Origin: Deltaproteobacteria bacterium
Lineage (GTDB): Bacteria; SAR324; NAC60-12
DNA: 44,179 bases
Direction of reading: 5' to 3'
NCBI GenBank assembly: GCA_038150265.1
Contig: JAYOTF010000028.1
Span: forward strand, 1-44,179
The number at the start of each line of letters is the position of its first letter. The first letter of the stretch is position 1. A program made the position numbers and the translations under genes. Below the pieces are notes generated by a model. That model ran no database searches. It saw only the letters and a list, made by a program, of their open reading frames with translations, and had not been told where the DNA came from. Positions 5,590 through 24,585 of the stretch are shown here, piece by piece.

Positions 5590-6597
5590 TCAGGGGGTGA
5601 GGCGGGTGGCCTGGGCCTGGGCCTGCAGAGCCAGGCGGCAGACGGTGAAGCAGTGCTCGTGCGTCATCGTGGTCTCGGTCCGGTTCCGGACGTCTTCGAG
5701 GAACTGCGCAAAGTACGTGATCGGGACGTCGTTGCAGTCCAGGCGCTCGTAGCGGTCGTTGGTGACGAGCAGGAGGTGGTTCCCTCCTTCGGGGCCGGGC
5801 ACATCGACGTACTTGCGCAGCTCCATGTAGCCCTCGGTGCCCTGAATGAAGAGGCGCCCGTCTCCCCACGTGGGCAGCGCGTCGGGCGTGTACCAGTCCA
5901 CGCGGATGAAGCCACTGGCCGTGCGGGTGCGCAGCGACACCTCGCCATAATCTTCCAGACCCGGGTGTTCCGGATTGGCGTAGTTGCCCACGGCGCTGGA
6001 GACGATTTCAGCGTCACTTGCCCCGGTCAGCCAGAGGAACTGGTCGATCTGGTGCGAGGCAATGTCGGTGAGGATGCCCCCGTACTGAGCCGGGTCGTAA
6101 AACCACGGGCGCCGCAGGTGCGCGTTGTGCCGATGGGGCCCCAGCCCGGTCGTCTGGATGACGGTGCCAATGACGCCCTGGTCGATCAGCTCCTTGGCCT
6201 TGAGGGTGGCCGGAACTTCAAAGTGCTCCGAAAAGTCGATGCTGTAGCGGGCACCGGTTTCGGCCTGGGCGGCCTGAACGGCCTCCAGCTGTTCAAAGGA
6301 AATCACTCCGGGCTTGTCCACCATCACGTCCTTGCCATGCCGCATCGCCTGGATGCAGATCTCGGCACGCTCTCCCGGAATGCCCGCACAGACGATGACC
6401 TGAAGGTCGGGGTGCTGATACAACTCCTCGGCAGACGCAAACCTGGGGACATCGGGGAAGCGGCGGAGGAAGCCCTCGAGGGGTTCGGCGTCGTCTCGGG
6501 TGTAGTAGCCGATGCACTGCGCTCCGGCAGCCAGGAGGCCTTCGGTCATGCCGTAAATGTGGCGGTGGTCCAGGCCGATGCAGGCAAATCGAATCAT
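5590..6597 (-). CDS. Gfo/Idh/MocA family NAD(P)-dependent oxidoreductase
   Basis: N-terminal Rossmann (IRFACIGLDHRH), MVDKP motif, GGILTDIASHQID. Confidence 0.88.
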   Translation of the reverse strand: MIRFACIGLDHRHIYGMTEGLLAAGAQCIGYYTRDDAEPLEGFLRRFPDVPRFASAEELYQHPDLQVIVCAGIPGERAEICIQAMRHGKDVMVDKPGVISFEQLEAVQAAQAETGARYSIDFSEHFEVPATLKAKELIDQGVIGTVIQTTGLGPHRHNAHLRRPWFYDPAQYGGILTDIASHQIDQFLWLTGASDAEIVSSAVGNYANPEHPGLEDYGEVSLRTRTASGFIRVDWYTPDALPTWGDGRLFIQGTEGYMELRKYVDVPGPEGGNHLLLVTNDRYERLDCNDVPITYFAQFLEDVRNRTETTMTHEHCFTVCRLALQAQAQATRLTP

Positions 6598-6605
6598 CCG
6601 GTGTC

Positions 6606-7769
6606 TCAGAAGGAGGTGTTCATGGCAGCGGCATCCACGGTGACCGACACGGTGTCGGTCCGGAACGAACTGGTGGCAATGCGCGCTTCAAGGTGCTTCC
6701 AGTACTGCTCTGCGTTGAGTGGGAAAGAAATCGAGGTGCCCTCGAAGGTGGACAGCAGCATCGCGTTCGCCAGCTCCACGCTGTGGATGCCTTCCACCGC
6801 CGGAGCGAGCAGCGGGGTCTGGTCGAGGACGGCGTCCACAAAGTTTTGCAGCACCTCCCGGTGCTGTCCCCCGCGGTCGGCAAACGGCAGGACGGCTTCG
6901 GTCGCCTCCGGTTTTCCAAACGGCTGGTCGGAGGTGCGGCAGTACTCCGAGATCGGGGTCTGGTTCTGCATCCAGCGCAGGCCTGCATCATCGGCGACGA
7001 CGGTGCCCTTCTCCCCGACGATTTCGAGCCGATTGGTGCCCGGGGCTTCCCCGGTGGTGGTGATGAAGGTGCAGGTGGCGCCGTTTTCATAAGTCAGCAG
7101 GGCCGTGACGTCGTCTTCCACTTCAATGTCGTGCCACTGCCCGAACCGGCACTGCGCCCAGACCGATTGCGGAGTGCCAAACAGCCACCAGAGCAGGTCG
7201 AGCTGATGCGGGCACTGATTGAGGAGCACCCCGCCGCCTTCGCCTTTCCAGGTGGCCCGCCACCCGCCACTGCGGTAGTAGAGGTCGGTCCGGAACCAGT
7301 CGGTGATGATCCAGTTCATGCGCCGCAGGTCTCCGAGTTCGCCGCCTTGAATGAGCGCCCGGAGCTTCTGGTAACGCGGGTCGGTCCGCTGGTTGAACAT
7401 GGCTCCGAAGACCTGCTCGGCACGTGGACGGTGTGTGTAGGCGTCGAGCAGGCGCTCACAGTCGCGTTTGTGGACCGAGATGGGCTTCTCCACCAGCACG
7501 TGCAGGCCCTGCTCCAGCGCATCAACGCCGATGGTGGTGTGATCGTAGTGCGGCGTGGCGATGAGCACGGCATCGACCTCTCCGGACCGGATCAGCTCGG
7601 CGCTGGAGGCAAAGCGGGGAATGCTGGAATCCAGCCCGGCAAGCCGAGCGGGGTCGGTGTCACAGACCGCCGAAACGGTGACGCGCTGCAGGTGCCCCTG
7701 CTGAATGGAGTGGTAGTGCTGGGTGCCCATGTTGCCCAGGCCAATGAGGCCCAGCTTCAGTTCACGCAT
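6606..7769 (-). CDS. Gfo/Idh/MocA family NAD(P)-dependent oxidoreductase
   Basis: GLIGLGNMG, IATPHYDH, VLVEKP, WRATWKGEGGGVLLNQCPHQLD. Confidence 0.92.
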   Translation of the reverse strand: MRELKLGLIGLGNMGTQHYHSIQQGHLQRVTVSAVCDTDPARLAGLDSSIPRFASSAELIRSGEVDAVLIATPHYDHTTIGVDALEQGLHVLVEKPISVHKRDCERLLDAYTHRPRAEQVFGAMFNQRTDPRYQKLRALIQGGELGDLRRMNWIITDWFRTDLYYRSGGWRATWKGEGGGVLLNQCPHQLDLLWWLFGTPQSVWAQCRFGQWHDIEVEDDVTALLTYENGATCTFITTTGEAPGTNRLEIVGEKGTVVADDAGLRWMQNQTPISEYCRTSDQPFGKPEATEAVLPFADRGGQHREVLQNFVDAVLDQTPLLAPAVEGIHSVELANAMLLSTFEGTSISFPLNAEQYWKHLEARIATSSFRTDTVSVTVDAAAMNTSF

Positions 7770-8832
7770 GCGGACCTGCTGAGGAGAGAGGAAGGGAGAC
7801 GGCCGCCTGCTGGCGGGAGGACTGATAAAACGCGAGGACGGCCTCGTTGGCCTTCAGGGCTTCGCTGAGCGGAATTTGAGGCGGCTGCTGCTGCTGCACA
7901 CGGGCCAGGACGTCGTCGATCTGGACCTGATGGAGGTCGCTGTATTCGGGTTTGGCGTAAGGTGGCTGAGGGGGCCGGGTGGCCTGCTGCAGCATCTGAA
8001 GCACTTCCGGATCCGGGTGCTGCAGGGACAGGAAGCGCCCGTTGTCGTTGGGGGTGTAGCAGAAGGAGCCCTCGGTGCCTTCGACTTCCAGTTGGGGCTC
8101 CCACGGGAAGCCCGGACGGTTGTGCATCTGCACGCGGCCTTCGAGTCCGGACGCAAACTGGACCGAGGCCCATTCGGATCCGTGCCCTTCCAGCGTGTCC
8201 TCCACTTCCAGCCCCGGGAAGGGATTCCGGGTGGAAATGGCGCCGGACACAGCGGTGAGGTCACCGAGCCACCACTGCCAGAGGTCAAGGGTGTGGATGC
8301 CCTGATTGAGCACCACCCCGCCGCCTTCGCCCCGCTGGGTCCCACGCCACGGCGCACGGGCATAGTAGTCGGGACCTCGGTCGCAGCGGAAGCGCGCCTG
8401 GGTCCGGAGGAGGGTTCCAAACCGTCCGGCCGCGAGCAGCTCCTTGAGGCGCTGTGCCGCAGGCGCATAGCGGTGCTGGAAGATGCCGGTGACCTGGTGG
8501 TTGGCGTCGGTCGCGGCGAGGCGCTTCAGGCGCTCCAGGTCCGCAACGGTGGTGCAGAGGGGCTTTTCACACAGCACCGGGACCTGGTGCGCCAGGGCGG
8601 CAACGATCAGGTCCGGATGAGACGGGTGGGGGGTGCAGAGGCTGACAAGGTCCAGCGGCACCTCTTCAAGCAGGCGGTGCGGGTGGTCCCACACAGGGGC
8701 GCCGGGTTGCAGGCGTTGCGCCTGAAGGGGGTCGGTGTCGCAGAGGAACACCTGCACCTCCGGGTGCTGCTGGAGAATCTGGAAGTGCAGCGTCCCAATG
8801 ACGCCACACCCCACAACGGCCACACGCAGCAT
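7762..8832 (-). CDS. Gfo/Idh/MocA family NAD(P)-dependent oxidoreductase
   Basis: Start trimmed to MLRVAVVGCGVIG (ATG 8832, 2 nt after the upstream stop). CTPHPSH, VLCEKP, WRGT..GEGGGVVLNQGIHTLD. Confidence 0.9.
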   Translation of the reverse strand: MLRVAVVGCGVIGTLHFQILQQHPEVQVFLCDTDPLQAQRLQPGAPVWDHPHRLLEEVPLDLVSLCTPHPSHPDLIVAALAHQVPVLCEKPLCTTVADLERLKRLAATDANHQVTGIFQHRYAPAAQRLKELLAAGRFGTLLRTQARFRCDRGPDYYARAPWRGTQRGEGGGVVLNQGIHTLDLWQWWLGDLTAVSGAISTRNPFPGLEVEDTLEGHGSEWASVQFASGLEGRVQMHNRPGFPWEPQLEVEGTEGSFCYTPNDNGRFLSLQHPDPEVLQMLQQATRPPQPPYAKPEYSDLHQVQIDDVLARVQQQQPPQIPLSEALKANEAVLAFYQSSRQQAAVSLPLSSAGPHA

Positions 8833-8834
8833 GC

Positions 8835-9605
8835 TCAGGTGGTGAAGAGGGGGACGTAGGGGGTCTGAGGCGCATCCAGGTTCCGGGTGTGGCCGTTCAT
8901 GTAGCACACGCTCAGGGCCCGGCGCGAGTGAGCCGTTCGGTTGACGTCGGAGGCGTGCAGCAGCAAATTGTGCAGCACAATCAGGTCTCCGGGCTCAGCG
9001 GTGAGGAACACGATTTCCTCGGGGCGGACGTGCTCCTCGGTCTGGGCCTCGGTGAGGTAGCCCGAAGGGTGTTCCGGATTCAGCAGGCCCTTGCGGTGAG
9101 AACCTCGGATGATCTGGACGCATCCGTTTTCTACCGTGGCAGGGTCAAGGGGGATCCAGACGGTCAGCAGGGGGTCCTGATCGAGGTGCGTCCAGCGGTC
9201 CTGATGCCAGGGCAGCCAGGTGCCCTTGCCTGCAGCCTTGTTCATGAACATGGTCCGGTACGCGGCAATGGGCACCTCCGCCCCATACACGTGCCGGCAC
9301 AGCTCCACAAAGAACGGGGAGGTGATGAAGGCGTGGAAGCGTGCGTCGGTTTCCAGCCCCTGAATCTTCCGGTAAGCGAGCGAGGCGCCCCGGAAGCCAT
9401 TTCCGCCCCACTGCAGGTCCTCGTACTTTCCGGAGTCGGTGTCGAGCTGCATCCAGATCTGGTCGTAGTCCACGGGCGCCTCTCCGAGCATGATGGCGTC
9501 AATGCGTTCCTGGAGGCCGTGGATGTCAGCCGGGTCCAGGAACTGCGGGAGGACAAAGTAACCGTCGGTCTCAAACTGCGTGAGGGCGGAATCGAGGTCA
9601 GCCAT
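8835..9605 (-). CDS. Phytanoyl-CoA dioxygenase (PhyH) family Fe(II)/2-oxoglutarate dioxygenase
   Basis: FETDGYFVL, WHQD (HxD), VWIPLD.AT.ENGC...IRGSH, PGD...HNLLLHAS..N....RRAL. Confidence 0.9.
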   Translation of the reverse strand: MADLDSALTQFETDGYFVLPQFLDPADIHGLQERIDAIMLGEAPVDYDQIWMQLDTDSGKYEDLQWGGNGFRGASLAYRKIQGLETDARFHAFITSPFFVELCRHVYGAEVPIAAYRTMFMNKAAGKGTWLPWHQDRWTHLDQDPLLTVWIPLDPATVENGCVQIIRGSHRKGLLNPEHPSGYLTEAQTEEHVRPEEIVFLTAEPGDLIVLHNLLLHASDVNRTAHSRRALSVCYMNGHTRNLDAPQTPYVPLFTT

Positions 9606-10849: not shown

Positions 10850-11925
10850 TTCAAACCTGTTGAGGCGATTCCGGTTGTGATGAACCGTTGCATGTAGGCA
10901 AAGACGGCGGTCACCGGAAGGAGGGAGACCACGGTCATGGCAAGGATGTAGTGGTAGTCGGTGCTGAACTGCCCGGAGAAGGCGGTCAGGCCGATCTGCA
11001 GGGTGTGCTGCTCCGGATCGGAGATGAGGACAATCAGGGGCCAGAGGAAGTCGTTCCAGCGCCAGATGACAGAGAGGATGGCCAGCACTGCGAGGGCCGG
11101 AAGCGAGAGGGGCAGGATGATGCGCCAGAAGATCTTCCACTCGGAGGCGGCATCCATGCGCGCAGCCTCAATGAGCTCATCCGGAATCGTCAGCATGTAC
11201 TGCCGGAGCAGGAAGACGCCGGTGGGCGTGGCGGCTGCCGGAATGATCACCCCCCAGATGGACCCGAAGATGCCCAGCGTCCAGACCACAAAGAAGAGGG
11301 AGACGAGGATGATGGTGGCCGGAATCAGCAGGGTCGAGATGATCAGGGCCGTGAAGACCATCCGCCCCTTGAACCGGTACTTCGAGAGCGCGTAGGCGGC
11401 CATGGAGTTGATCAGCAGCGTGATCAGGGTCGCGGTGACGGTGACAAAGACCGTGTTCGACAGGTAACGGAAGAAGAAGAAGTTCTGCTGCCCCCCCTGC
11501 TGAAGGAGCGGGTTGAGGTAGTTCTCGGTCGCAATCTTCAGCTCTTCCTTCGGGACCAGCTCGTTCCGGGGCGCCTCCAGCTCGGTGGTGGGCGCCTCCA
11601 GCGGGGCCACTTGCGTCAGGCGACGGGTGGGGCCGGTCTTGAAGACTTCCTGCTGCGTCCCGTCGGGCTGATTCCAGAAGTACACGGGCTTCTCGCCGAG
11701 GCCTTCAATCGTTTCCTGCACCTGCGCGTAGGGCAGGATGCGGGTGTCAAAGCGGTCGAGGGCCTCCTTGGACTTCAGGGAGCTGAGGAAGGCCCAGAGG
11801 ACGGGGATGACCACGAGGGCGACGCCGAAGAGGAGGTAGCTGTACACGAGCACATCCGAAAGACCGATGCGCCGACCGTTGGCGCCTCCTCGGGTCCGGG
11901 TGAGAAAGGTGAGGACCTGGGACAT
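10846..11925 (-). CDS. Carbohydrate ABC transporter permease (MalG-type)
   Basis: TM helices, EAA loop (IPDELIEAARMDAASEW), WNDFLWPL, QRFITTG. Confidence 0.93.
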   Translation of the reverse strand: MSQVLTFLTRTRGGANGRRIGLSDVLVYSYLLFGVALVVIPVLWAFLSSLKSKEALDRFDTRILPYAQVQETIEGLGEKPVYFWNQPDGTQQEVFKTGPTRRLTQVAPLEAPTTELEAPRNELVPKEELKIATENYLNPLLQQGGQQNFFFFRYLSNTVFVTVTATLITLLINSMAAYALSKYRFKGRMVFTALIISTLLIPATIILVSLFFVVWTLGIFGSIWGVIIPAAATPTGVFLLRQYMLTIPDELIEAARMDAASEWKIFWRIILPLSLPALAVLAILSVIWRWNDFLWPLIVLISDPEQHTLQIGLTAFSGQFSTDYHYILAMTVVSLLPVTAVFAYMQRFITTGIASTGLK

Positions 11926-11927
11926 GG

Positions 11928-13361
11928 TTACACTCCGGATTGCTTGCGGGTGAAGTAGAGCTGGAAGAGGGTAAACACCGCAATCACCAGAGCCATCAGC
12001 ACCGAAGCCGCAGCGGCTTCTCCAAAGTTGGCCTGGTCATTGGAGAAGGCCAACTCGACAATGTGCTGAACGATCATGAAGGTCTCGCGTCCGGGCCCTC
12101 CTCCGGTGAGGAGGTAGACCTCATCAAAGATCTGGAAGCTCTTGATGAGCGACAGCACAAACACCACGGTGAAGGTGGGCATCAGCAGCGGCATCGTGAT
12201 GCGCCAGAACACCCGGATGGGCTTGGCGGCATCCATCTCGGCAGCCTCATAGAGGTCGGCAGGAATCGCCTGCAGGCCAGCCAGGAGGATCAGCATGTAG
12301 TAGCCCATGTGCGACCAGCAGTAGACAAAGACGACCCAGAAGAAGGGCCACCCCTGCCGAGGCAGCACCAACCAGTTGATGGGCCGGAAGCGTCCGAGGT
12401 CAAAGACCGCATCAAACTGAATGGTGAGCAGGAGGCCTGCCGCCAGGGCGCCCAGCACGGCAAACGCCCAGGGCAGCCGCGGGTGGTCGAGCAGGGCCAG
12501 GGCGATCAGGCCGCCTCCCAGAACGATCCCGATCAGGGCATTGAGGGGCAGGGACGTTTCGCCAATCATGCCCACCGGGTTCGACCAGGAAACCACGGCG
12601 AGGAAGAGCAGGGCAAAGAGGGAGGTCCAGGGCAGCGACGGCAAGGCGCTGCTCCGGAGCGCACGCTCCATGGAAAGCAGCATGAAGAGGCCAACGAGGA
12701 CGGTGACCGTGATGTCAAACCCGGCCAGGCCTGCGAGGTCGTTGAGGGTCTGGTTGCCGCTCGCCAGGGTGGCATTCAGGGCGCCCTTGCGGTGGAGGAT
12801 CCACTGCCAGATGTTGGCAATCACCACCGGTGAGAGCATGACGGGGTAGAAGAACATCGCCCGCCAGAAGCCCCGTCCGGACATGGCCTTGTTGACGACC
12901 AGGGCCGTCAGCAGCGCCATGCCACAGAGCACCGGAACCTGAAAGACGATGAAGAGCAGGGTGTTGAACAGGCTTTGCCAGAAGTTGTAACCCGCGTTGG
13001 GGCAGGTCTTGGGCTCCAGGATGCTGTCGCAGTCAAAAATCTGGTGGTAGTTCTCCCACCCGACAAAAGGCCGTTCAAAAATCGAGATCGAGTCTCCGCT
13101 GGTGAAGGAGACGTAAAAGTTCAGCAAAACCGGGAGGAAGGTAAACATCCCGAAGATGAGCATGTTGGGCAGCAAGAAGGCATAGGGCACCCCCTTGCGT
13201 CCCCAGATGCTCTGGGCCCAGTCCACAGGAACCCCAATGAGGTCAATGAAGAAGTGCGGGATCTGGTCGATCCGGTAGCGCTGTCTGGTCAGCAGCCAGA
13301 GGGACCCGCCTCCAATCCACAGCACCCCCACGACCGAAACGATCCAGGCAGTAGGTGACAT
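11928..13361 (-). CDS. Carbohydrate ABC transporter permease (MalF-type) with an internal hydrophobic insertion
   Basis: FLLPNML, FVGWENY, FFYPVMLSPVV, LAGLQAIPADLYEAAEMD, FDEVYLLTGGGP. At 477 aa it is longer than typical. Confidence 0.92.
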   Translation of the reverse strand: MSPTAWIVSVVGVLWIGGGSLWLLTRQRYRIDQIPHFFIDLIGVPVDWAQSIWGRKGVPYAFLLPNMLIFGMFTFLPVLLNFYVSFTSGDSISIFERPFVGWENYHQIFDCDSILEPKTCPNAGYNFWQSLFNTLLFIVFQVPVLCGMALLTALVVNKAMSGRGFWRAMFFYPVMLSPVVIANIWQWILHRKGALNATLASGNQTLNDLAGLAGFDITVTVLVGLFMLLSMERALRSSALPSLPWTSLFALLFLAVVSWSNPVGMIGETSLPLNALIGIVLGGGLIALALLDHPRLPWAFAVLGALAAGLLLTIQFDAVFDLGRFRPINWLVLPRQGWPFFWVVFVYCWSHMGYYMLILLAGLQAIPADLYEAAEMDAAKPIRVFWRITMPLLMPTFTVVFVLSLIKSFQIFDEVYLLTGGGPGRETFMIVQHIVELAFSNDQANFGEAAAASVLMALVIAVFTLFQLYFTRKQSGV

Positions 13362-13376
13362 GTTTTTTCAGGGAGA

Positions 13377-13396
13377 GAGGCCAGCGAGCTGGCCTC
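13377..13396 (-). other. Intercistronic hairpin downstream of the binding-protein gene (likely mRNA stabiliser/attenuator)
   Basis: GAGGCCAGC-ga-GCTGGCCTC perfect inverted repeat between the SBP stop and the permease start. Confidence 0.55.
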
Positions 13397-13410
13397 GGGT
13401 GAAAGCTGGT

Positions 13411-14688
13411 TTACTTGGTCTTGCCAGCGATTTCCTGACGGATCTTGTCCATCGCCTCATCCATTGACAGCTCGCCGTTCATGACGGGGGCCAGGTACTG
13501 GGTGGTGGCGTTGTAGAAGACAAAGTTGGAGGGAGAGCCCTGCAGCGCATAGGCCTGCGGGGTCTGCTTGGCCGCCTTGCCGGCTCCAGCGGCAAAGACG
13601 TTCAGGCTGGTGGCAATCTTCTCGTTGGCACCATACTTGGCATAATCCGCCCCTTCTTCCTGCACCCGGGCATTGGCCGGAATGGCAAAGATGCGGCTGT
13701 AGTACTCCTTCGACTGCTCGTACTCACCGAGCCACGCCACAAACTTGGCGGCATCAGACGGGTTCTTGCTGGTGTTGAAGGCCACATAGCCGGCGCCTCC
13801 GGGCATGATGCCACATCCTGCTGGGCCACACGGCACCGGCACCACGCGCCAGTCAAACTTGTCCCCAGCGTTCTTGTCCACGTTGGCCACGTTCCAGGAG
13901 CCCGACATGTAAAACGGGACGTCCTGGTTGAAGAACATCTCGTTGCCGTTGGCGTACTTGGAGCCCGAAACCGCCGGCCAGATGTCCGGAGGCATCAGCC
14001 CCTCTTCGTGCCACTTGACCATGCGCGCGGCGAAGCTGCGGAAGCCATCGTCAATGATCATGTTGCCTTGGGCGTCAAAGTACTGGGCGCCATAGGACAT
14101 GGCCGGGCCTGCCATGCGGTGTCCGGAGCGGTCCATCACCATGCCCGCGTAGGAGCCGGTCTTTTCCATCACCTGGCGGGTGGCATCGGCCCAGTCGTCC
14201 CAGGTTGCCCCTTCACCGGGCAGGTCCACGCCCGCTTCTTCAAACATGGTCACGTTCACATACGGACCGGTGACGGTCATCTCGGAGTGGAACCCGTAGA
14301 TGCCTCCGGGCTTCCCGGCGCGGTACCACGGCAGCACGGCGCCGTACATGGATTCCCACTCGGAAGCGTTCACGTAAGGGGTGAGGTCCACGTAATACGG
14401 ATTGAGGCCGCCGAGCTTGGTCACCTTGGCGATGTCGGGACCGCCTCCGGCCTGAAGCTGGGACTCCAGCTGGTCACGGATGATGTCGTAGCCGACGACG
14501 TTCATTTCAACCGTCACGCCGGGGTTCGCCTGCTCATAACGGTTGATGAAGTCCTGCATCACTTCGGCTTCGTTGCCATCGGAATAGAGCATCAGGCTCA
14601 GTTCCACGGCTTGAGCACTCAGGCTCATGCCCGCGATGAGGCCTGCGGACAGCAGGGCCTGGACCATCTTTTTTGCGAAGGTTTTCAT
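13411..14688 (-). CDS. Carbohydrate ABC transporter substrate-binding protein (SBP family 1, AguE-like)
   Basis: Start trimmed to MKTFAKK after a GGAG RBS; signal peptide ending AQA. Motifs GGGPDIAKVT, MDRSGHR..GPA.SYGA, PCGPAGCG.MPGG. Confidence 0.92.
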   Translation of the reverse strand: MKTFAKKMVQALLSAGLIAGMSLSAQAVELSLMLYSDGNEAEVMQDFINRYEQANPGVTVEMNVVGYDIIRDQLESQLQAGGGPDIAKVTKLGGLNPYYVDLTPYVNASEWESMYGAVLPWYRAGKPGGIYGFHSEMTVTGPYVNVTMFEEAGVDLPGEGATWDDWADATRQVMEKTGSYAGMVMDRSGHRMAGPAMSYGAQYFDAQGNMIIDDGFRSFAARMVKWHEEGLMPPDIWPAVSGSKYANGNEMFFNQDVPFYMSGSWNVANVDKNAGDKFDWRVVPVPCGPAGCGIMPGGAGYVAFNTSKNPSDAAKFVAWLGEYEQSKEYYSRIFAIPANARVQEEGADYAKYGANEKIATSLNVFAAGAGKAAKQTPQAYALQGSPSNFVFYNATTQYLAPVMNGELSMDEAMDKIRQEIAGKTK

Positions 14689-14858
14689 GGTTTCTCCAAG
14701 TCTGGTGATTCGAATGCTGAGCCCGGCAGGGCCCGGGTGTAAGGAACTCTCAATGAAAGGGACGTTGGGAACAAGGCCGGTCCCTGCCATAGGGTTACGT
14801 CATAGGCATGTTCGGTTCAGGGGGTGAGCAAGGTCGATGAAGGTGGAGCAGGAGGCAT

Positions 14859-15371
14859 TCATGCGGCGGAGCCGGAAAAGGTGCCGTAGCCTCCGGAGTA
14901 AAAGAAGAGCGGCGCGTCCTCGGACTGCTGCTGAACCTGGTGGACCCGTCCGAGCACCATCCGGTGGTCCCCCGCCTCATGCGTGGTCTCCAGGGAGCAG
15001 TCGAGCCGTGCGAGGCAGTCGCTCAGGCAGGGGCTGCCCCCGAGCCCGGCGGTCCAGGAAACGCCATGGAAGTCCCACCCGTCCCGGGCAAAGCGAGCCG
15101 CCAGGTCCAGCTGGTTGTGCGCCAGGAAGTGGATGGCGAAGTGCGGGGCGTCAGCAAACGCGTCAAAGCGGCTGGACGAGTGCGCCAGGGACCAGAGGAT
15201 CAGCGGAGGATCAAGCGACACCGAGGTGAAGCTGTTGGCGGTCATGGCCACGGGGCCATCCGGAGTCGCTGTGGTGATGATGGTGACGCCGGTGCCAAAC
15301 AATCCGAGCAGGTTCCGGTACGCCTTCTGATGGGCTTCTGAAGGCACAAAGGCCTCATGGGGGGCAGTCAT
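14859..15371 (-). CDS. smoA: Flavin reductase (HpaC/RutF type), partner of the LLM monooxygenase
   Basis: RNLLGLFGTGVTIIT, MTANSFTSVSLDPPLILWS, AGDH. Overlaps the AKR stop. The symbol rests on gene context. Confidence 0.85.
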   Translation of the reverse strand: MTAPHEAFVPSEAHQKAYRNLLGLFGTGVTIITTATPDGPVAMTANSFTSVSLDPPLILWSLAHSSSRFDAFADAPHFAIHFLAHNQLDLAARFARDGWDFHGVSWTAGLGGSPCLSDCLARLDCSLETTHEAGDHRMVLGRVHQVQQQSEDAPLFFYSGGYGTFSGSAA

Positions 15372-16258
15372 GGAACTTCGTTTCCTAGAGCAGCAGTGTA
15401 GAGTTCAAACCAGTCCTCGCGGGAAAGCACCACCTGGGTGGCCTGCGCCATGTCAGCAATCCGATCCAGTTGGTTGGTCCCCAGGATCGGCAGCAACCGA
15501 GCCGGGTGCGTGAGCAGCCAGGCAATCGCCGTGGCAGCAGGCGACACCCCGTGTTTGGCGGCCATGGCCTGCAGCGCCGAGCCCACGGACGTTTCGGCGT
15601 GAAAGAGCGCCCCGCCTCCCAGCGGGGACCAGATCATGGGCGGAATGCCCGCCTGCTGCAAAAAGGCGAGGTCGCCGTTGGTGAACGGGGCCAGTTCCAG
15701 AAGCGAGGCCTCAATCTGGTTGGTCACCAGCGGCTGCGTCATCGCGGACTGCAGGAGGTCCCAGTCGTGCTTCTTGAAGTTGGACACGCCCACGGCCCGG
15801 ACCTTCCCGGACTGCACCAGCGCATCCAGGGCCGCGCCGGTTTCCTCGTGGTCCATGAGCGGATCCGGACGGTGCAGGAGCAGCAGGTCGAGGGTGTCGA
15901 GGTGCATCACCCGGAGCGAGTTCTCCACGGACGCCTCCAGGTGGGCACGGCGGGTGTCGTAGTACTTGACGCGACGCTCCGGGTACTTTTCGGAAAGCAG
16001 CATGATGTCGCACTTGCTGACCACCTCCACCTGCTCCCGAAGCTGTGGCGCCTGCTTGAAGGCGTGGCCGAGCAGGGTCTCGGAGGTGTAATCGCCATAA
16101 ATGTCAGCCTGATCCAGCGTCGTGATGCCCTGCTCCAGGCAGGTCTCAATCTTGGCCTGGGTCCGGGCGGGGGTGGTGTCGGGGTCGTCTCCCAGGCGCC
16201 ACATGCCGTAAATCAGGCGGCTGAAGCTCAGTTGTTCGGTCAGGGAAATGCGTTCCAT
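15368..16258 (-). CDS. smoB: Aldo/keto reductase; probable 6-oxo-glucose (6-dehydroglucose) reductase
   Basis: AKR motifs DQADIYG, SKC, LLHRPD, GVSNF, NQIE, WSPLGGG. N-terminus MERISLTEQLSFSRLIYGMWRLGDD closely resembles Agrobacterium SmoB as I recall it. Coupled to smoC. Confidence 0.85.
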   Translation of the reverse strand: MERISLTEQLSFSRLIYGMWRLGDDPDTTPARTQAKIETCLEQGITTLDQADIYGDYTSETLLGHAFKQAPQLREQVEVVSKCDIMLLSEKYPERRVKYYDTRRAHLEASVENSLRVMHLDTLDLLLLHRPDPLMDHEETGAALDALVQSGKVRAVGVSNFKKHDWDLLQSAMTQPLVTNQIEASLLELAPFTNGDLAFLQQAGIPPMIWSPLGGGALFHAETSVGSALQAMAAKHGVSPAATAIAWLLTHPARLLPILGTNQLDRIADMAQATQVVLSREDWFELYTAALGNEVP

Positions 16259-17415
16259 TAGCGTCGCTCTCCAACTCCAAGGGGGGTGTCTGGCACCTGC
16301 GCCGGCCGCCGTCCGTAGACTTCAGGCAGGGAGCAGGTCTTGAGGTGCGGTAAAACACGTTTACCAAAGGATTGGCATTCGTCAAGGTGCGGATAGCCAG
16401 AAAAGATGAAGGCCCGGATGCCCATCTTCTGGTACGCCTCCAGTTCGCTCATGACCTGATCGACAGAACCCACCAGGGCTGCGCCGCATCCGGAACGGGC
16501 GCGTCCCACTCCGGTCCAGAGGTGGGGCTCCAGGTAGCCCTCTTCGTTGGCGGCTTCCCGGTTCTTGGACTGGTGGGCCACGCCCAGCGATCCGGCATCC
16601 AGGGAGCGCTCCCGGATGGTCTGACCGTAGTCGTCATCGAGCCTGGAGACCAACTCGCGGGCATACTCGCGGGCCTCGGCTTCTGTGTCTCGGACAATCA
16701 TGTGCACCCGCAGGCCGTAGTCGATGACGCGGCCATAGGCCTTCGCTTGCTCATGGACCGCCTTCATGCGATCAGCCAGCAACTCACGGGTCTCGGGCCA
16801 CATCAGGTACACGTCGCAGTGCTGGCCACAGAGGTGAACCGCGTCGGGGGAGTACCCGCCGAAGTAAAGCAGCGGCCCCCCGTTTTGCTGGTACGGCCGG
16901 ACGGGGTCGGTGGTCAGGCCTTCAAACTGGTACACCTCCCCCTGATAGTTGATCTCGTCCTGCGTCCACGCCTGTCGCAGGATCTCCACCACCTCCCGGG
17001 ATCGCTGATAGCGGAAGGCGCTGGGCTCCTTCTGTCCCGGAAAGTCGGAGGAAATGATGTTGACCGTCAACCGACCCTCCAGCAGGTGATCCAGCGTGGC
17101 AAGGGTCCGGGCCAGCATGATGGGGTGCAGCTCTCCGCAGCGAACCGCTGCCAGCATGTTGATGCGACTGGTCAGCGGGCCATTGGCGGCCACAAACGAG
17201 AGCGTGTCCTGCCCCACGTGGTAGGACGAGGGACAGAGGATGTTGCGAAAGCCCAGTTCCTCAGCGGTCCGGACGATGCGGGAGGTGTTTTGCCAGCTGG
17301 AACGCAGGGTCCCGTCCGGAACCCCCAGGTAGCGGTAATCATCAGAGCACAGCGGGGCAAACCACGAGACTTCAGCGGCGTCTAAATCGGCGGAACGGAT
17401 GGGAACAACGGTCAT
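16258..17415 (-). CDS. smoC: LLM-class flavin-dependent monooxygenase; probable sulfoquinovose monooxygenase
   Basis: MTVVP..SADLDAAEVSWF..LCSDD, PSSY.VGQD, ATLDH.LEGRL, LYFGGYSP, YLMWPE, LWTG.GRARSGCGAALVGS, SGYPHL. This matches the SmoC/SquD subfamily as recalled. Confidence 0.88.
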   Translation of the reverse strand: MTVVPIRSADLDAAEVSWFAPLCSDDYRYLGVPDGTLRSSWQNTSRIVRTAEELGFRNILCPSSYHVGQDTLSFVAANGPLTSRINMLAAVRCGELHPIMLARTLATLDHLLEGRLTVNIISSDFPGQKEPSAFRYQRSREVVEILRQAWTQDEINYQGEVYQFEGLTTDPVRPYQQNGGPLLYFGGYSPDAVHLCGQHCDVYLMWPETRELLADRMKAVHEQAKAYGRVIDYGLRVHMIVRDTEAEAREYARELVSRLDDDYGQTIRERSLDAGSLGVAHQSKNREAANEEGYLEPHLWTGVGRARSGCGAALVGSVDQVMSELEAYQKMGIRAFIFSGYPHLDECQSFGKRVLPHLKTCSLPEVYGRRPAQVPDTPLGVGERR

Positions 17416-17494
17416 GCTTACCTCAAGATTAGCTTGATTTAATCTTAGAAAGATGCATCAATTTAACAATCGTGTATCAATTTGCTAGCAAAAA
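17416..17494. promoter_or_regulatory. AT-rich divergent promoter region with candidate GntR operator sites
   Basis: Direct repeats TGCATCAATTT (17454-17464) and TGTATCAATTT (17473-17483). Inverted repeat AAGATTA-N8-TAATCTT (17425-17446). Lies between smoC and the divergent GntR gene. Confidence 0.6.
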
Positions 17495-18220
17495 ATGAAA
17501 GCCCCTGCAAAAAAGCTCCTCGGCGCTCCGGGCGCCCTGCCCCTGCACCTTCAGGTGTCCGAGATGCTGACCCGTGAGATTCAGGCCGGCATCCTGCTGG
17601 ACGGCGAGCGCTTGCCTCCGGAACGGGAGATGGCCAAGCACCTGGGGGTCTCGATTGGAACCCTGCGCAAGGCGCTGGCGGATCTGGTGGAGAAGGAGAT
17701 GCTGGAGCGCGTGCAGGGGTCCGGGAACTACATCCGGCACCGTCCGGATCCCAAGTCGATTTATGCCTTCTTTCACCTGGAGTTGACGACCGGCGGCGGG
17801 CTGCCGACGGCCCGGATCCACAGTGTGGAGCGTGTGCCCAAGCCGGCGGATCTTCCCGACATCGGATCCGCTGCAGAGGCCTTCCGGATCCTGCGGTTCC
17901 GGGACCTCAATCAGCAGGAAGTGGCACTGGAGGAGATCTGGCTCGACGGGCGCTTTGCCGACCATCTGAGCCCGGTGGACCTTTCGGACTCGCTTTATCA
18001 GTTCTACAAGGAAGCCCTGGGCGTGTGGATCACCCGGGCGGAAGACCAGGTGGGGGTTCAGGCTCTACCCGCCTGGACGCCTCCGGAGTTTGCCAGCGCC
18101 GATGAGGGCGTTTGGGGCTTCATTGAACGTTTATCGTGGGACCAGCATGGGGAGACGGCCGAGTTTTCCCGGACCTGGTTCAATGCCGACAGGGCACGGT
18201 TTGTTGCCCGCTGGAGATAA
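17495..18220 (+). CDS. smoD: GntR family (HutC/UTRA) transcriptional regulator
   Basis: wHTH GERLPPEREMA..LGVS.GTLRKAL..L......RVQGSGNY plus a UTRA-like C-terminus. Divergent from smoC. The symbol rests on context. Confidence 0.88.
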   Translation: MKAPAKKLLGAPGALPLHLQVSEMLTREIQAGILLDGERLPPEREMAKHLGVSIGTLRKALADLVEKEMLERVQGSGNYIRHRPDPKSIYAFFHLELTTGGGLPTARIHSVERVPKPADLPDIGSAAEAFRILRFRDLNQQEVALEEIWLDGRFADHLSPVDLSDSLYQFYKEALGVWITRAEDQVGVQALPAWTPPEFASADEGVWGFIERLSWDQHGETAEFSRTWFNADRARFVARWR

Positions 18221-18223
18221 TCC

Positions 18224-19351
18224 ATGACCTCGAAAACACGTTACGGCTTGATCGGCTGCGGCATGATGGGCCAAGAGCACCTCAGAAACATCAACCTCCT
18301 TCCGGACACCCAGGTCACCGCGATCTTTGAGCCGGACCCCGGCATGCGGGCCGAGGCGGCCCAGTTGGCTCCGGAGGCCCGGTTCTTTCCCTCTGCCGAG
18401 GAGCTGCTGGCCTTTCCGGATCTGGACTGCCTCGTCATCGTCAGTCCGAACTTCCGGCACGTGGAGCAGCTGGTGCAGATTGCCGAGCAGCGCCCGCTGC
18501 CGATTCTGGTGGAGAAGCCGCTGCTGACGGATCCCGAGGACTTCCCGCGCGTCCGGAAGCTGCAGGCCACCTTCCCGCATCCGATCTGGGTCGCAATGGA
18601 GTACCGCTACATGCCTCCTGTCGCGTACCTCCTCCAGGAAGCTGCAGGCGTCACCGGTGGCATCCGGATGCTGACGATCCAGGAGCACCGCTTCCCGTTT
18701 CTGGAGAAGGTTGGGGACTGGAACCGCTTCAACCGCTACTCCGGAGGCACGCTGGTGGAAAAGTGCTGCCACTTCTTTGACCTGATGCGGTTTGCCCTGC
18801 AGGATGAGCCGGTCCGGGTGATGGCGTCGGGCGGGCAGGCGAACAACCACCTTGAGGAGCAGTATGCGGGTGAGACTCCGGACATCTGGGACCACGCCTA
18901 CGTGATTGTCGAGTTTGCAAAAGGAGGCCGGGCGTTGCTGGAGCTGTGCATGTTTGCCGAGGGGGCAAGGTATCAGGAGGAGATTTCGGCAGTGGGACCA
19001 CAGGGCAAGCTGGAGTGTCTGGTGCCCGGGCCCCAGCGGTTTTGGCCCGAATCGTTGGGCGAGCCGCCGGTGCCGCAGGTCGTGGTGAGCCCCCGCTCGC
19101 CGAAGGGCCCCCGGCAGTTTGAGGTGCCCGTCGATCCGAAAATTCTGGAGGCCGGAGACCACAACGGGTCGACGTTCTACCAGCATGAGAAGTTCCTCGC
19201 GGTGGTCCGGGGGCAGGGGACGGTTGAGGTCTCGGTTGAAGATGGCCTGCTTGCGGTGGCGATGGGGATGGCCGCTCAGGAATCTGCTGCCACTGGCAAG
19301 ACGGTGGAGCTGCAGGAGTTCCTGAACCGCTACGGCGCCTTGACTTCCTGA
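18224..19351 (+). CDS. sqgA: Gfo/Idh/MocA-fold protein; probable NAD+-dependent sulfoquinovosidase (GH188)
   Basis: GLIGCGMMGQEH, LVEKP, WVAMEYRYMP, EHRFPFL.KV.DWNRF...SGGTLVEKCCHFFDLM, GDHNGSTFYQH. These are the motifs I associate with SqgA-type enzymes. It sits in an smo cluster with no GH31 gene. Confidence 0.78.
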   Translation: MTSKTRYGLIGCGMMGQEHLRNINLLPDTQVTAIFEPDPGMRAEAAQLAPEARFFPSAEELLAFPDLDCLVIVSPNFRHVEQLVQIAEQRPLPILVEKPLLTDPEDFPRVRKLQATFPHPIWVAMEYRYMPPVAYLLQEAAGVTGGIRMLTIQEHRFPFLEKVGDWNRFNRYSGGTLVEKCCHFFDLMRFALQDEPVRVMASGGQANNHLEEQYAGETPDIWDHAYVIVEFAKGGRALLELCMFAEGARYQEEISAVGPQGKLECLVPGPQRFWPESLGEPPVPQVVVSPRSPKGPRQFEVPVDPKILEAGDHNGSTFYQHEKFLAVVRGQGTVEVSVEDGLLAVAMGMAAQESAATGKTVELQEFLNRYGALTS

Positions 19352-19369
19352 AGGCTGCGGAGGGTCTGG

Positions 19370-20602
19370 ATGATGACTGGAGGAAAGCAAGGAGGGGTTC
19401 AGCGCTGGCAGGTCCTCCTGGTGGCGTTGGGGCTGTGGGGAGGAAGCGTGCAGGCCTTTGATGGGGCGATGCAGGTGGAGCCGTCTTACCTGAACCCGGA
19501 AAATTTCCTCGACATCCAGTCCTACCAGTTCCGTCCGGAGCAGGAGCGGGCGTGGCGTCGGGCGGCAAAGGGGTGGCGGAGTACAGGGGGAAGCCTGGGG
19601 CTGGACCTGCTCTTCTCGCAGCTGCAGGTGAAGCTTAGGCATCCGCTGGCCCGAGGCTTTGAGGCGGCCCTGGTGATCGACCATGAGGAGTTCTACGAGG
19701 TCAAGCCCCTGCGGTACCTGGTGGAGGTGCAGTGGAAGGCGACAGAAGCCATCGGGATCGGGTTCATCGGGATGCCGCAGTACGACAAACGCAATGCCGA
19801 CGAGGGGGGCGCCCTGACGCTGGGCTCACCAACGGGGTCGTTTCTCCGGCTCAGCCACCTCCGGCAGAACCTCTTCTACAACGAAAAGAACTTTTACGAC
19901 GACACCCGTCAGAACCCGCATCCCATTGAGAACACCCTTCAGGGAGCGTGGCTGCAGGGGCCGTGGGAGGTGGCCCTGAAAGCCCGCTGGGACCTGCCGA
20001 TGCGTCTGGAGGACCCAACCCGGGAGTTCGTCTTTCAGCATGAGGGGCAGGAGCAGCAGGCGCTGGTGGAGTTCCAGGACGCCGCGTCTCGGTTTTGGGG
20101 CTGGGAAGGGCGGCAGGTGGCGTTTGACAAGTCCCGCGCGGCCCCGGCTTCTGAGCCGGAGGAGGACCGCCGCTCGGAAAAAATCCGCTGGCAGTCTCAC
20201 ACCCTGCAGGTCGATGGTCGGGGCTCCGGACCGTGGGCCTATGGGCTGGGGCTCCGCTGGGATGCCTTCCGGAATACCTTCACGCAGGTGGGAGATCCGG
20301 CCAGCAGCGAAGACTTCCAACTGACGTCGTGGCAGGCCTTCGGGATCCTCCGGGAGGTGGCGCCCGAGACGGCCTGGGAGTATGGGCTGTACTGGGGCTC
20401 CGTCAACAAGGAGGTGACCTTTGCCGACCCGGCTGTGCCTCCGGAGGAGGAGCCCTCTCTGCAGGGAAAACTGCGGGTCAGCTGGGAGCTGCTTGCCTCT
20501 GATGAGCAGGGCAGCTGGATGATCACCACCACCTGGAACCTCGATGGCCTGCCCCGGGATTTTTGGGATGGCGGAAACATGACGTACCAGCAGACCTTCT
20601 GA
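19370..20602 (+). CDS. Hypothetical exported protein, probable outer-membrane beta-barrel
   Basis: Signal peptide ending VQA. Many alternating aromatic/hydrophobic strands (WEVALKARW, WAYGLGLRW, WEYGLYWG, KLRVSWEL). C-terminal beta-signal-like MTYQQTF. Confidence 0.7.
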   Translation: MMTGGKQGGVQRWQVLLVALGLWGGSVQAFDGAMQVEPSYLNPENFLDIQSYQFRPEQERAWRRAAKGWRSTGGSLGLDLLFSQLQVKLRHPLARGFEAALVIDHEEFYEVKPLRYLVEVQWKATEAIGIGFIGMPQYDKRNADEGGALTLGSPTGSFLRLSHLRQNLFYNEKNFYDDTRQNPHPIENTLQGAWLQGPWEVALKARWDLPMRLEDPTREFVFQHEGQEQQALVEFQDAASRFWGWEGRQVAFDKSRAAPASEPEEDRRSEKIRWQSHTLQVDGRGSGPWAYGLGLRWDAFRNTFTQVGDPASSEDFQLTSWQAFGILREVAPETAWEYGLYWGSVNKEVTFADPAVPPEEEPSLQGKLRVSWELLASDEQGSWMITTTWNLDGLPRDFWDGGNMTYQQTF

Positions 20603-20712
20603 AGGTATGCCCACCTGGAGCGTGTCCCTTCCTCGGATAATTAAATTGACATGTCCCAGATTTCGCATTGGGATAGAACGTTCCTTTTCACTAACCCTAG
20701 GAGAGAGACTGT

Positions 20713-22302
20713 ATGAAAAGTCTATTCAAAACCCTGCTTGCTGCAACGGTAGCTGCCACGACCCTGGCGGCTCCAGCTTATGCGGCCAAGACTCTGGTGT
20801 TCTGCTCGGAGGGAAGTCCGGAAGGCTTCACTCCTTCGCTGTACACCTCCGGAACCACCTTTGACGCCTCCTCTCGTCAGATCTTCAACCGGCTGGTGGA
20901 GTTTGACCGGGGCACCACCAAAATTGTCCCGGCGTTGGCAGAATCCTGGAACGTCTCCGACGACGGCCTGGAGTACACCTTCAACCTGCGCAAGGGCGTC
21001 AAGTTCCAAACGACCAAGGAGTTCACCCCGAGCCGGGACTTCAATGCCGACGATGTGCTCTTCAGCTTCAACCGGCAGCGTCTGGCAGACCACCCCTACC
21101 ACAGCGTCTCCGGTGGGTCGTATGAGTACTTCAACGGCATGTCGATGCCGGACCTGATCAAGGACATCGTCAAGGTCGACGACTACACCGTCAAGTTCGT
21201 CCTGAACCGTCCGGAAGCTCCGATGATTGCCAACCTGGCCATGGACTTTGCCTCCATTCACTCCGCCGAGTACGCGGATCAGATGTCTGGGAACAAGGAC
21301 ATGTTTGACCAGAAGCCTGTGGGCACCGGACCCTTCCAGCTGGTGGCTTACCAGAAGGACGCGGTGATCCGCTACAAGGCCCACCCCGATTACTGGGCTG
21401 GCAAGGCACCGATTGACAACCTCGTCTTTGCGATTACCCCGGATGCATCCGTGCGTTACCAGAAGCTGAAGGCGGGCGAGTGCCACGTGATGACCTACCC
21501 GAACCCAGCCGACCTGGATGCCATGAGCAAGGATTCCGCTGTGAACCTGATGCAACAGGAAGGTCTGAACGTGGGGTACCTGGCGTACAACACGAAGATG
21601 GCCCCGTTCAACAATCCGGTCGTCCGGAAGGCGCTGAACATGGCGATCAACAAGGACGCGATCATTGATGCCGTCTTCCAGGGCGCCGGAAAAGTGGCCA
21701 AGAATCCGATTCCGCCGACCATCTGGTCCTACAATGAGCGGACGGTTGATGACGCGTACAACCCCGAAGCCGCTCGCCAGATGCTGGCGGATGCCGGAAT
21801 CTCTGGGCTGAAGACCAAGGTGTGGGCGATGCCGGTGCAGCGTCCGTACAACCCGAATGCCCGCCGCATGGCAGAGCTGATTCAAGCGGACTGGAAAGCC
21901 GTGGGCGTTGAGGCCGAGGTGGTCAGCTACGAGTGGGGCGAGTACCTCAACCGCTCCAAGGCGGAAGACCGTGACGGTGCCGTGCTGCTGGGCTGGACGG
22001 GAGACAACGGTGACCCCGACAACTTCCTCGCCGTGCTGCTCGGCTGCGATGGCGTGGGAGGCTCCAACCGGGCGCAGTGGTGCTACCAGCCCTTCGAGGA
22101 CCTGATCCAGAAGGCCAAGGTGGTGAGCGACCGCGACCTGCGCACGCAGTACTATGAGGCGGCTCAGGTGATCATGAAGGACCAGGCCCCGTGGGCGACC
22201 ATTGCCCACAGCGTCGTCTTCAAGCCGATCCGCAAGGAAGTGGTGGATTTCCGCATCGACCCCTTCGGTGGACACGTCTTCTACGGCGTTGATCTGAAAT
22301 AA
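20713..22302 (+). CDS. dppA: Dipeptide ABC transporter substrate-binding protein
   Basis: KTLVFCSEGSPEGF, FNADDV.FSF, PVGTGPF, WAMPVQRPYNPNA, GWTGDNGDPDNF. Confidence 0.95.
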   Translation: MKSLFKTLLAATVAATTLAAPAYAAKTLVFCSEGSPEGFTPSLYTSGTTFDASSRQIFNRLVEFDRGTTKIVPALAESWNVSDDGLEYTFNLRKGVKFQTTKEFTPSRDFNADDVLFSFNRQRLADHPYHSVSGGSYEYFNGMSMPDLIKDIVKVDDYTVKFVLNRPEAPMIANLAMDFASIHSAEYADQMSGNKDMFDQKPVGTGPFQLVAYQKDAVIRYKAHPDYWAGKAPIDNLVFAITPDASVRYQKLKAGECHVMTYPNPADLDAMSKDSAVNLMQQEGLNVGYLAYNTKMAPFNNPVVRKALNMAINKDAIIDAVFQGAGKVAKNPIPPTIWSYNERTVDDAYNPEAARQMLADAGISGLKTKVWAMPVQRPYNPNARRMAELIQADWKAVGVEAEVVSYEWGEYLNRSKAEDRDGAVLLGWTGDNGDPDNFLAVLLGCDGVGGSNRAQWCYQPFEDLIQKAKVVSDRDLRTQYYEAAQVIMKDQAPWATIAHSVVFKPIRKEVVDFRIDPFGGHVFYGVDLK

Positions 22303-22309
22303 TTGCAAT

Positions 22310-22347
22310 GGGCTCCGGGCTTCCGGAGCCCTGGGCCTTCGGGCCCA
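22310..22347 (+). other. Two tandem hairpins after dppA (likely mRNA stabiliser/partial terminator)
   Basis: GGGCTCCGG-gctt-CCGGAGCCC (22310-22331), then TGGGCC-ttcg-GGCCCA (22332-22347). Confidence 0.6.
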
Positions 22348-22365
22348 AACCCTCCTGCGCGCCTC

Positions 22366-24251: not shown

Positions 24252-24258
24252 GCCCGCC

Positions 24259-24552
24259 TTACTGCTTGATCTCCTCAATGATGGTCCGGTTCACCGGAAT
24301 CTGAACGTAGCCGTTTTCCACACTCCAGAAGAAGTAATACCCGGTCGCTGAGCCGTCCGGGTTCTTCTGGGTCGTGACCTTGCCGTCCCGGACGGTCCAG
24401 CTCTTGACGATGGTGCCACTGTCGGCAACATACGACACCTTCATGTCCTTGCCGAGGTAGTTGTCCACCTCCTTGAAGACCTCGTTACGGCGCTCCTCCG
24501 TACAACCAGCCAGCAAGAGTCCCATCAAGAGGAAGGGGATCAGGTATTTCAT
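24259..24552 (-). CDS. Hypothetical lipoprotein
   Basis: MKYLIPFLLMGLLLAGC lipobox; AGGAG RBS upstream; co-oriented with lysA. Confidence 0.8.
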   Translation of the reverse strand: MKYLIPFLLMGLLLAGCTEERRNEVFKEVDNYLGKDMKVSYVADSGTIVKSWTVRDGKVTTQKNPDGSATGYYFFWSVENGYVQIPVNRTIIEEIKQ

Positions 24553-24585
24553 GGGGGTTCTCCTTTCGTGTTCAAACAGATGGGG

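Follow-up and report, generated by a model that had tools for sequence, protein, structure and literature searches.

We found that an apparently uncultured member of the SAR324 phylum very probably carries a Roseobacter-type sulfoquinovose monooxygenase (sulfo-SMO) cluster, which is predicted to convert glycosides of sulfoquinovose (SQ), a sulfur-containing sugar of algae, into glucose and sulfite and was likely obtained from marine Pseudomonadota. In the window (the whole stretch of 44,179 nucleotides that was analysed), the cluster consists of smoC-smoB-smoA on the minus strand and a divergent gntR-sqgA pair on the plus strand, with the open reading frames at the positions given in the first-pass annotation. 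The predicted steps rest on homology to assayed enzymes, and it is in this sense that we infer activities, regulation, uptake, sulfite fate and direction of transfer.

Organization of the cluster

The smoC and smoB genes overlap by 1 base and smoB and smoA by 4, while gntR and sqgA are separated by 3 bases. These open reading frames and the Pfam domains of the five products (Bac_luciferase, Aldo_ket_red, Flavin_Reduct, GntR plus UTRA, and GFO_IDH_MocA) agree with the earlier description of an overlapping LLM monooxygenase-aldo-keto reductase-flavin reductase operon, divergent from a GntR gene and a Gfo/Idh/MocA gene 3 nt further on. The limits then proposed (14859..19351) were, however, too narrow, as the genes of an ABC importer (9728-14688, minus strand) continue after smoA on the same strand. 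At the opposite end, the open reading frame at 19370-20602 was rejected as a member of the cassette and treated as backbone, because it had no Pfam or NCBIfam match, was missing from 79 other smo loci and lay on a separate contig in the congener G046. The gene layout of the window is widespread in marine clusters: smoB, smoA, gntR and sqgA were all positioned as here in 53 of 79 related smo loci. Within the SAR324 phylum, smoCBA-gntR-sqgA was present in 2 of 88 genomes.

Around the cluster are the backbone genes lysA, pgk, b558-type sdhCAB and ppx. An assembly artefact, mis-binning or a chimera was ruled out, since a 94-kb contig of a second congener, G047, carries the same cluster and backbone (protein identity 82-93%), and since contigs from four public runs belonging to three studies (one possibly the source sample) covered all 30 bins of 9000-27000 without joints. 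No RNA run was listed among those containing this sequence.

Enzymes of the predicted pathway

The product of smoC (16258..17415, minus strand, 385 aa) is a predicted FMNH2-dependent SQ monooxygenase. Its matches to 7OLF (E 6.6e-200) and 7OH2 (9.8e-199), the SmoC entries named in PMC8795539, were far stronger than those to MsuD and SsuD (4e-57 to 2e-53). The seven site residues listed in the same work (Y136, S189, W206, R236, H238, Y341 and H343) were all kept, although they do not show SQ specificity, since three SsuD rows carry them too. Only one other luciferase-like gene was present in the genome. The smoB gene (15368..16258, minus strand) directly adjoins smoC, and thus lies within the 10 ORFs of SmoC that PMC13372026 takes as a criterion. 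It encodes a predicted aldo-keto reductase of 296 aa for the conversion of 6-oxo-glucose to glucose, which matched 7BBY with an E value of 3.2e-113 (next family, 2e-63) and, after a 22-residue tag offset, presented the five glucose/NADP residues Y54, K98, H129, R130 and W210. The overlapping smoA (14859..15371, minus strand, 170 aa; PF01613, E 3.8e-41) is the predicted partner flavin reductase of the sulfo-SMO, and a smoA-type gene occupied the equivalent position in 62 of 79 related smo loci.

On the plus strand, sqgA (18224..19351, 375 aa) encodes a predicted NAD+-dependent sulfoquinovosidase of family GH188. The protein matched 8ZN9 (E 2.7e-162), 8QC3 (9.8e-115) and 8QC2 (6.1e-113), the next match (other Gfo/Idh/MocA proteins) being at 4e-15. 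It contained all seven key residues (K98, Y127, R156, L160, K162, E179 and H183, in the RdSqgA numbering of PMC12780224), as well as the C-terminal histidine H313. A GH31 sulfoquinovosidase was not found in the genome, which is 97.8% complete. Hence, the first-pass assignments of the three proteins as SmoC (AtSmoC E 7e-200, as against 4e-57 for MsuD), SmoB and SqgA were upheld, and so was the proposal that GH188 stands in place of a GH31 enzyme.

The same divergent arrangement of sqgA-gntR and smoC-smoB-smoA is found in the Roseobacter-clade sulfo-SMO clusters with GH188 SqgA (R. denitrificans OCh 114, described in PMC10755693 and PMC12780224, and Ruegeria sp. THAF33), which likewise lack GH31 and have identical catalytic residues and upstream repeat. 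In contrast, the window belongs to a SAR324 host, has an ABC importer instead of a TRAP transporter, and carries phyH and three Gfo genes downstream. The assayed SmoC and SmoB of the Agrobacterium tumefaciens C58 smoA-I cluster (PMC8795539) are close to those described here (E 7e-200 and 3e-113), and flavin reductase and ABC genes are adjacent in both systems; however, the window has GH188 in place of the GH31 SmoI, and its binding protein lacks detectable likeness to SmoF.

Regulator and putative operator

The gntR gene (17495..18220, plus strand, 241 aa) encodes a GntR/UTRA regulator of the HutC type (PF00392 and PF07702), which is likely the repressor of the cluster; 76 of 79 related loci had it in divergent orientation to smoC. 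A predicted operator made of ATTGAT-type direct repeats (17456..17481, minus strand) is located between both genes, with the pattern at 17465-17481 and a third half-site at 17456-17462. Of 78 related loci, 70 had the repeat upstream of smoC and none had it inside the gene, and the pattern had only 2 matches across the whole genome. Both this repeat and the gene order of the window agree with those of marine proteobacterial clusters. A sigma-70 scan yielded one promoter-like site (0.6 expected), and none at smoC.

Adjacent importer and flanking genes

After smoA, the minus strand carries genes for an ABC solute-binding protein of the SBP_bac_1 family (13411..14688), two sugar ABC permeases (11928-13361 and 10846-11925) and a MalK/UgpC-type ATPase (9728 to about 10849), followed by a PhyH-family dioxygenase and three Gfo/Idh/MocA oxidoreductases (5590..9605), all on the same strand as smoCBA. 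The permeases and ATPase have orthologues of 80-92% identity in G046 and G047. The binding protein is a candidate binder of SQ or sulfoquinovosyl-glycerol (SQGro), but its identity as SmoF was rejected because the AtSmoF entries 7NBZ and 7OFY were absent among its 37 PDB matches with E up to 10. Uptake could possibly proceed through this importer, for and against being about evenly balanced; according to PMC12780224, the imported substrate is likely SQ or SQGro rather than the intact sulfolipid.

A serious alternative, to which we give not quite an even chance, is that the importer and the phyH/Gfo genes form a module of their own, dedicated to another sugar or to a uronide, and that the SQ cassette is just its neighbour. 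The lack of likeness to SmoF favours such a module, and so do the 22 of 80 binding-protein loci that are closest to that of the window (at least 59% identity): none had smoC, sqgA or an SQ isomerase gene in its flanks (0 of 12 when at least 4 kb upstream was available), including two at 79-80% identity. Moreover, plasmid homologues of 38-43% identity were in non-SQ contexts in four of the five regions examined. However, SQ genes did occur in 28 of the 58 more distant loci, many of these being near copies, and binding proteins of the same family stand beside SQ genes in 5 of 79 smo loci, in Marinovum algicola, in the SAR324 genome G057 and in G046. In addition, the plasmid cluster of M. algicola DG 898, in which gntR-sqgA is co-directional with smoC, unlike in the window, has smoCBA, a hydrolase gene and an ABC importer of this binding-protein family (44%) in the same order as G047. 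In G057, phyH, gfo2 and gfo3 flank smoC-sqgA as well.

Host and origin of the cluster

The host is estuarine and belongs to the SAR324 phylum, which has 88 species in one class and lies outside the Pseudomonadota. This placement is based on LysA and genome kinship codes. The named organisms among the 120 best LysA matches were SAR324, Deltaproteobacteria or Lambdaproteobacteria, with no Pseudomonadota, and the LysA of same-family genomes was 98-100% identical to SAR324-labelled proteins. The universal 16S rRNA primer site was not found anywhere in the assembly. The SAR324-like host suggested at first was upheld.

Horizontal acquisition from marine Pseudomonadota is the likely origin of the cluster, with good support that falls short of proof. 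The SmoC of the window shares 75-82% identity with proteobacterial copies, compared to 70-73% with genus g10 of its own family. SmoC trees (a quick one of 68 rows and a careful one of 32) had a biased sampling because the rows were mostly best matches of the window SmoC. In the careful tree, a 99/98 branch joined the window protein to the SmoC of alpha- and gammaproteobacteria and to G040, leaving g10 outside. Similarly, SqgA is 71% identical to that of Roseibium versus 64% to that of G046, which groups with other SAR324 copies (support 96/92). The identities to G046 are 72% for LysA and 80-88% for the ABC genes.

The claim of horizontal transfer made in the first-pass annotation is thus favoured by the nesting among Pseudomonadota and the presence in 2 of 88 genomes, but AU tests keep a common SAR324 origin, since neither the SmoC of g10 and the window genus (g1) as one clade (p 0.061) nor the SAR324 SqgA set as one clade (p 0.17) was rejected. 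These tests would fit a single early acquisition in the SAR324 family followed by loss in most lineages, instead of a separate gain by the genus, and so would the SqgA-like genes in 20 of the 88 phylum genomes and the composition of the cluster, which gives no sign of recent transfer because its GC and GC3 equal those of the host (GC3 0.77-0.83 versus 0.73-0.84). We nevertheless regard this scenario as distinctly unlikely: two starred branches part g1 from g10 in the best SmoC trees, identities run counter to kinship, and g1 has the proteobacterial gene order and operator, neither of which turned up in a scan of the 9 other SAR324 SQ loci.

Related loci in SAR324 and the SsuD label

Other SAR324 genomes presented different gene sets. 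One congener of the window genome has a sulfoglycolytic set instead of the smo set. In g10, a rhodopsin-bearing genus, smoC-sqgA was present in 7 of 9 genomes and smoB in none of the 9; manD was beside smoC in 7 of 7 loci, and G057 carries uxaC-uxuB inside its smoC-sqgA cluster. Near smoC, G057 has an aldo-keto reductase with 28% identity to SmoB; this enzyme was rejected as a non-orthologous substitute for g10, being found in 1 of the 7 loci. It may be speculated, although we consider it rather unlikely, that SAR324 are overlooked SQ consumers with several routes. The importer of the window would then define a new non-SmoF sulfosugar-binding family, and the abundant surface genus g10 would run an undescribed variant with SmoC but without SmoB, in which 6-oxo-glucose is oxidised to a uronate-level product and channelled through UxaC, UxuB and ManD, rather than reduced to glucose.

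That 16258-17415 belongs to an SsuD/MsuD-like sulfur-scavenging operon for alkanesulfonates can be dismissed as extremely improbable: fold, chemistry and site residues are common to both, and public labels read alkanesulfonate monooxygenase, but the protein is only 32-34% identical to SsuD, scores 239.7 bits on the SsuD model TIGR03565 (curated cut-off, 518.2), matches AtSmoC far better, and is encoded in a different operon, coupled to SmoB and GH188. Structure matches, model score and trees all support its membership in the SmoC clade. This bears on published data, as Boeuf et al. (PMC8364033) reported SsuD in SAR324 above 200 m. Since none of the 88 phylum genomes passed the SsuD cut-off and the best scores on that model were those of SmoC loci, we infer from these genomes, rather than from the sequences of Boeuf et al., that the surface SAR324 'SsuD' is likely SmoC.

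Proposed pathway and implications

SQ or SQGro would enter the cell possibly via the adjacent ABC importer, and SqgA, with catalytic NAD+, would release SQ from sulfoquinovosyl-glycerol. With O2 and the FMNH2 supplied by SmoA, SmoC would break the C-S bond to yield 6-oxo-glucose and sulfite, and SmoB would reduce the former to glucose. The GntR protein, acting on the ATTGAT repeats, would likely repress both transcripts. Sulfite could be exported (TauE family) or oxidised (SoxXYZABC), and the genome carries genes for both; a SoeC-type (DmsC family) anchor was not found in it. Neither was a clear glucokinase, the two ROK kinases being below the cut-off.

Marine SQ turnover has been credited mainly to Roseobacteraceae and Alteromonadaceae (PMC12780224), and sulfo-SMO outside Alphaproteobacteria has already been reported (PMC8795539, PMC13372026). 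SAR324 was not named as a carrier in the literature searched, outside which lies Liu et al. 2023 (ISME J 17:393). Both the pathway and its occurrence in non-alphaproteobacterial hosts were thus known beforehand; what is new in the window is the carrier, and the enzymes are ordinary. With a complete cluster in SAR324, the SQ carriers come to include a phylum mostly considered in the context of sulfur oxidation, and the Sox genes of this genome could gain energy from the sulfite freed.

Results

The five ORFs of the sulfoquinovose (SQ) cluster lie where the first-pass annotation had placed them: smoC (16258-17415, minus strand), encoding the sulfo-SMO monooxygenase; smoB (15368-16258, minus), a reductase ORF overlapping smoC by 1 base; smoA (14859-15371, minus), overlapping smoB by 4 bases; gntR (17495-18220, plus), divergent from smoC; and sqgA (18224-19351, plus), three bases behind gntR. 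The same cluster with the same backbone is present on one 94-kb contig of the congener G047, at 82-93% identity to the window, and contigs from four runs of three studies, one of which runs may be the source, covered all 30 bins of 9000-27000 without joints. The five runs holding at least half of the window's words were estuary, aquatic or unlabelled metagenomes. An ORF of 410 aa (19370-20602, plus) begins 18 bases after sqgA; it is about 80% identical in G047, has its homologue elsewhere in the congener G046, and matched no Pfam or NCBIfam model. Farther on, ORFs of 339 and 752 aa (25906-29180), each about 88-91% identical in G047, had no NCBIfam match at 1e-20.

The identities proposed for the enzymes were borne out. 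Window SmoC aligned without gaps to 7OLF (E 6.6e-200) and 7OH2 (9.8e-199), which are, according to the available text of PMC8795539, SmoC of Agrobacterium tumefaciens and R. oryzae, whereas the alkanesulfonate monooxygenases MsuD and SsuD gave E values of 4e-57 to 2e-53 and the SsuD model scored 239.7 bits, under its cut-off of 518.2. All seven published SmoC site residues are kept, although the same residues also occur in three SsuD rows. The reductase matched the SmoB structure 7BBY (E 3.2e-113) and keeps Y54, K98, H129, R130 and W210. The Gfo/Idh/MocA protein is a GH188 SqgA, matching 8ZN9 at E 2.7e-162 and 8QC3/8QC2 at 1e-114 to 1e-112, with the next match at 4e-15; it has 7/7 of the residues named for RdSqgA, plus the C-terminal His. 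8ZN9 was deposited by PMC12780224, in whose available text the sole crystal described is R. denitrificans SqgA, and the GH188 paper's supplement lists 8QC3. No GH31 gene was found in the genome (97.8% complete).

The arrangement was compared with 79 related loci (the best 80 of 581 genome loci by window SmoC, minus the congener). Divergent gntR was found in 76, smoB in 75, and smoA and sqgA in 62 each, all four being in place in 53. An ATTGAT-type direct repeat lies 5' of smoC in 70 of the 78 loci whose flank was long enough, against 0/78 control stretches within smoC, the pattern having been derived from the same loci in which it was counted. The window copy (17465-17481) is one of two matches in the whole genome. 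For the GntR/UTRA protein, this repeat is the predicted and most likely operator.

An ABC importer that the first-pass annotation overlooked (9728-14688) follows smoA, and behind it stand a PhyH dioxygenase gene and three Gfo/Idh/MocA genes (5590-9605, minus); smoC-sqgA of G057, a genome of the surface genus g10, is likewise flanked by phyH, gfo2 and gfo3. The importer's binding protein is unlike SmoF, the SQGro-binding protein of A. tumefaciens. Its family occurs beside SQ genes in 5 of the 79 smo loci, in Marinovum algicola, in G057 and in G046. SQ genes accompanied 28 of 58 metagenome loci with a binding protein less than 59% identical, many of them near copies, and 0/22 closer loci (at least 59% identity). 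A hydrolase gene lies between smoA and the binding protein in G047 but not at that place in the window's genome; this alpha/beta hydrolase (L112:14488-15546) is 41% identical to that of the Marinovum cluster.

Neither smoC nor smoB was found in G046 (96% complete). Its contig C23 (L119:4360-14713) carries, in the stretch upstream of the orthologues of this hydrolase and of the importer, genes for a PfkB kinase, a LacD-type aldolase, an SftI-like isomerase (317 bits, cut-off 700), sqgA, an SDR, a TRAP system and a UxaA/GarD-family gene. This set is likely sulfoglycolytic, so that members of the genus would pair one importer with either of two SQ routes. Isomerase and kinase genes adjoin sqgA in two other SAR324 genomes (G044 and G030) too.

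Elsewhere in the window's genome, SoxX, Y, Z, A, B and C all exceeded their curated cut-offs (cluster at L283:5240-10954, contig C8), and five TauE-family genes and two ROK kinases, neither a clear glucokinase, were found. Its recA (C1:96062-97029; L245, L246) matched in two pieces, 5 bases apart and out of frame, either through misassembly or because the gene is broken.

The host is SAR324, and non-alphaproteobacterial as had been supposed: named organisms among the 120 best LysA relatives were SAR324 cluster, Deltaproteobacteria, Lambdaproteobacteria and an unclassified bacterium, with no Pseudomonadota, and LysA of same-family genomes was 98-100% identical to proteins labelled SAR324. No 16S primer site was found in the assembly. 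Within the phylum set (88 species, one class), SmoC at 70% identity or more occurred in 10 genomes (the window's, G047, G040 and seven of the nine of g10), SmoB (at least 59%) in three and SqgA (at least 55%) in 15; the complete five-gene cassette was found in the window's genome and G047 alone. In G040, a single contig (C746; L120, L121) carries both smoC-smoB and sqgA-TRAP at a distance of about 630 kb, with neither gntR nor smoA beside either locus.

Discussion

The cassette was likely transferred from marine Pseudomonadota, long enough ago to have ameliorated. Alpha-, beta- and gammaproteobacterial copies share 75-82% identity with window SmoC, those of g10 share 70-73%, and in a tree of 32 rows picked from 108 sequences a 99/98 branch united it with G040 and alpha/gamma copies, leaving g10 outside. 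SqgA of the congener G046 joined G030 and g10 (96/92; 34 rows picked from 84), apart from the window's genome and G047. Both topologies speak against a single early acquisition within SAR324 followed by losses, which we consider improbable, although one SAR324 clade was not rejected by AU tests (SmoC p 0.061; SqgA p 0.17) and the GC3 of the cluster is host-like.

In g10, where eight of nine genomes have rhodopsin, smoC is divergent from sqgA (L115, L116, L117, L118, L126, L127, L128). Its SmoC sequence cluster has 455 database members, named by JGI, where named, as alkanesulfonate monooxygenase. SsuD was reported in SAR324 above 200 m (PMC8364033, available text). Since 0/88 phylum genomes passed the SsuD cut-off and the top scores were SmoC loci, that SsuD is likely SmoC, a reading drawn from the 88 genomes. 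No smoB was found in the nine g10 genomes, manD adjoins smoC in 7/7 loci, and uxaC and uxuB lie within the smoC cluster of G057. An oxidative branch is possible, but the genomes behind these counts are 67-99% complete, and family genomes without smoC also have uxaC (17/45) and manD (15/45). No report joining 6-oxo-glucose, glucuronate and sulfoquinovose was found by title or abstract.

As to the host being new, sulfo-SMO is known, in the available texts, from Alpha- and Betaproteobacteria (PMC8795539) and from Vibrio thalassae, Actinomycetota and Spirochaetota (PMC13372026), and Roseobacter clusters almost always include GH188 (PMC10755693); occurrence outside Alphaproteobacteria is accordingly no novelty, but SAR324 was not found named as a carrier. 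The term was not found in the main texts of PMC12780224, PMC13436972 and PMC13372026 or in those of their supplements that were searched, among them a table listing 2,050 genomes positive for the pathway. One SAR324 protein appears in the GH188 paper's supplement with no pathway given, and 'sulfo' was not found in PMC9031357. No report of SAR324 with sulfoquinovose or sulfolipid was found by title or abstract; Liu et al. 2023, outside this search, may list SAR324 smoC. Judged by sequence, the sulfo-SMO/GH188 cluster of the window is real and complete, and typical of its kind. The pathway itself is already known, and SAR324, which the literature searched was not found to name in connection with it, would be a new carrier.
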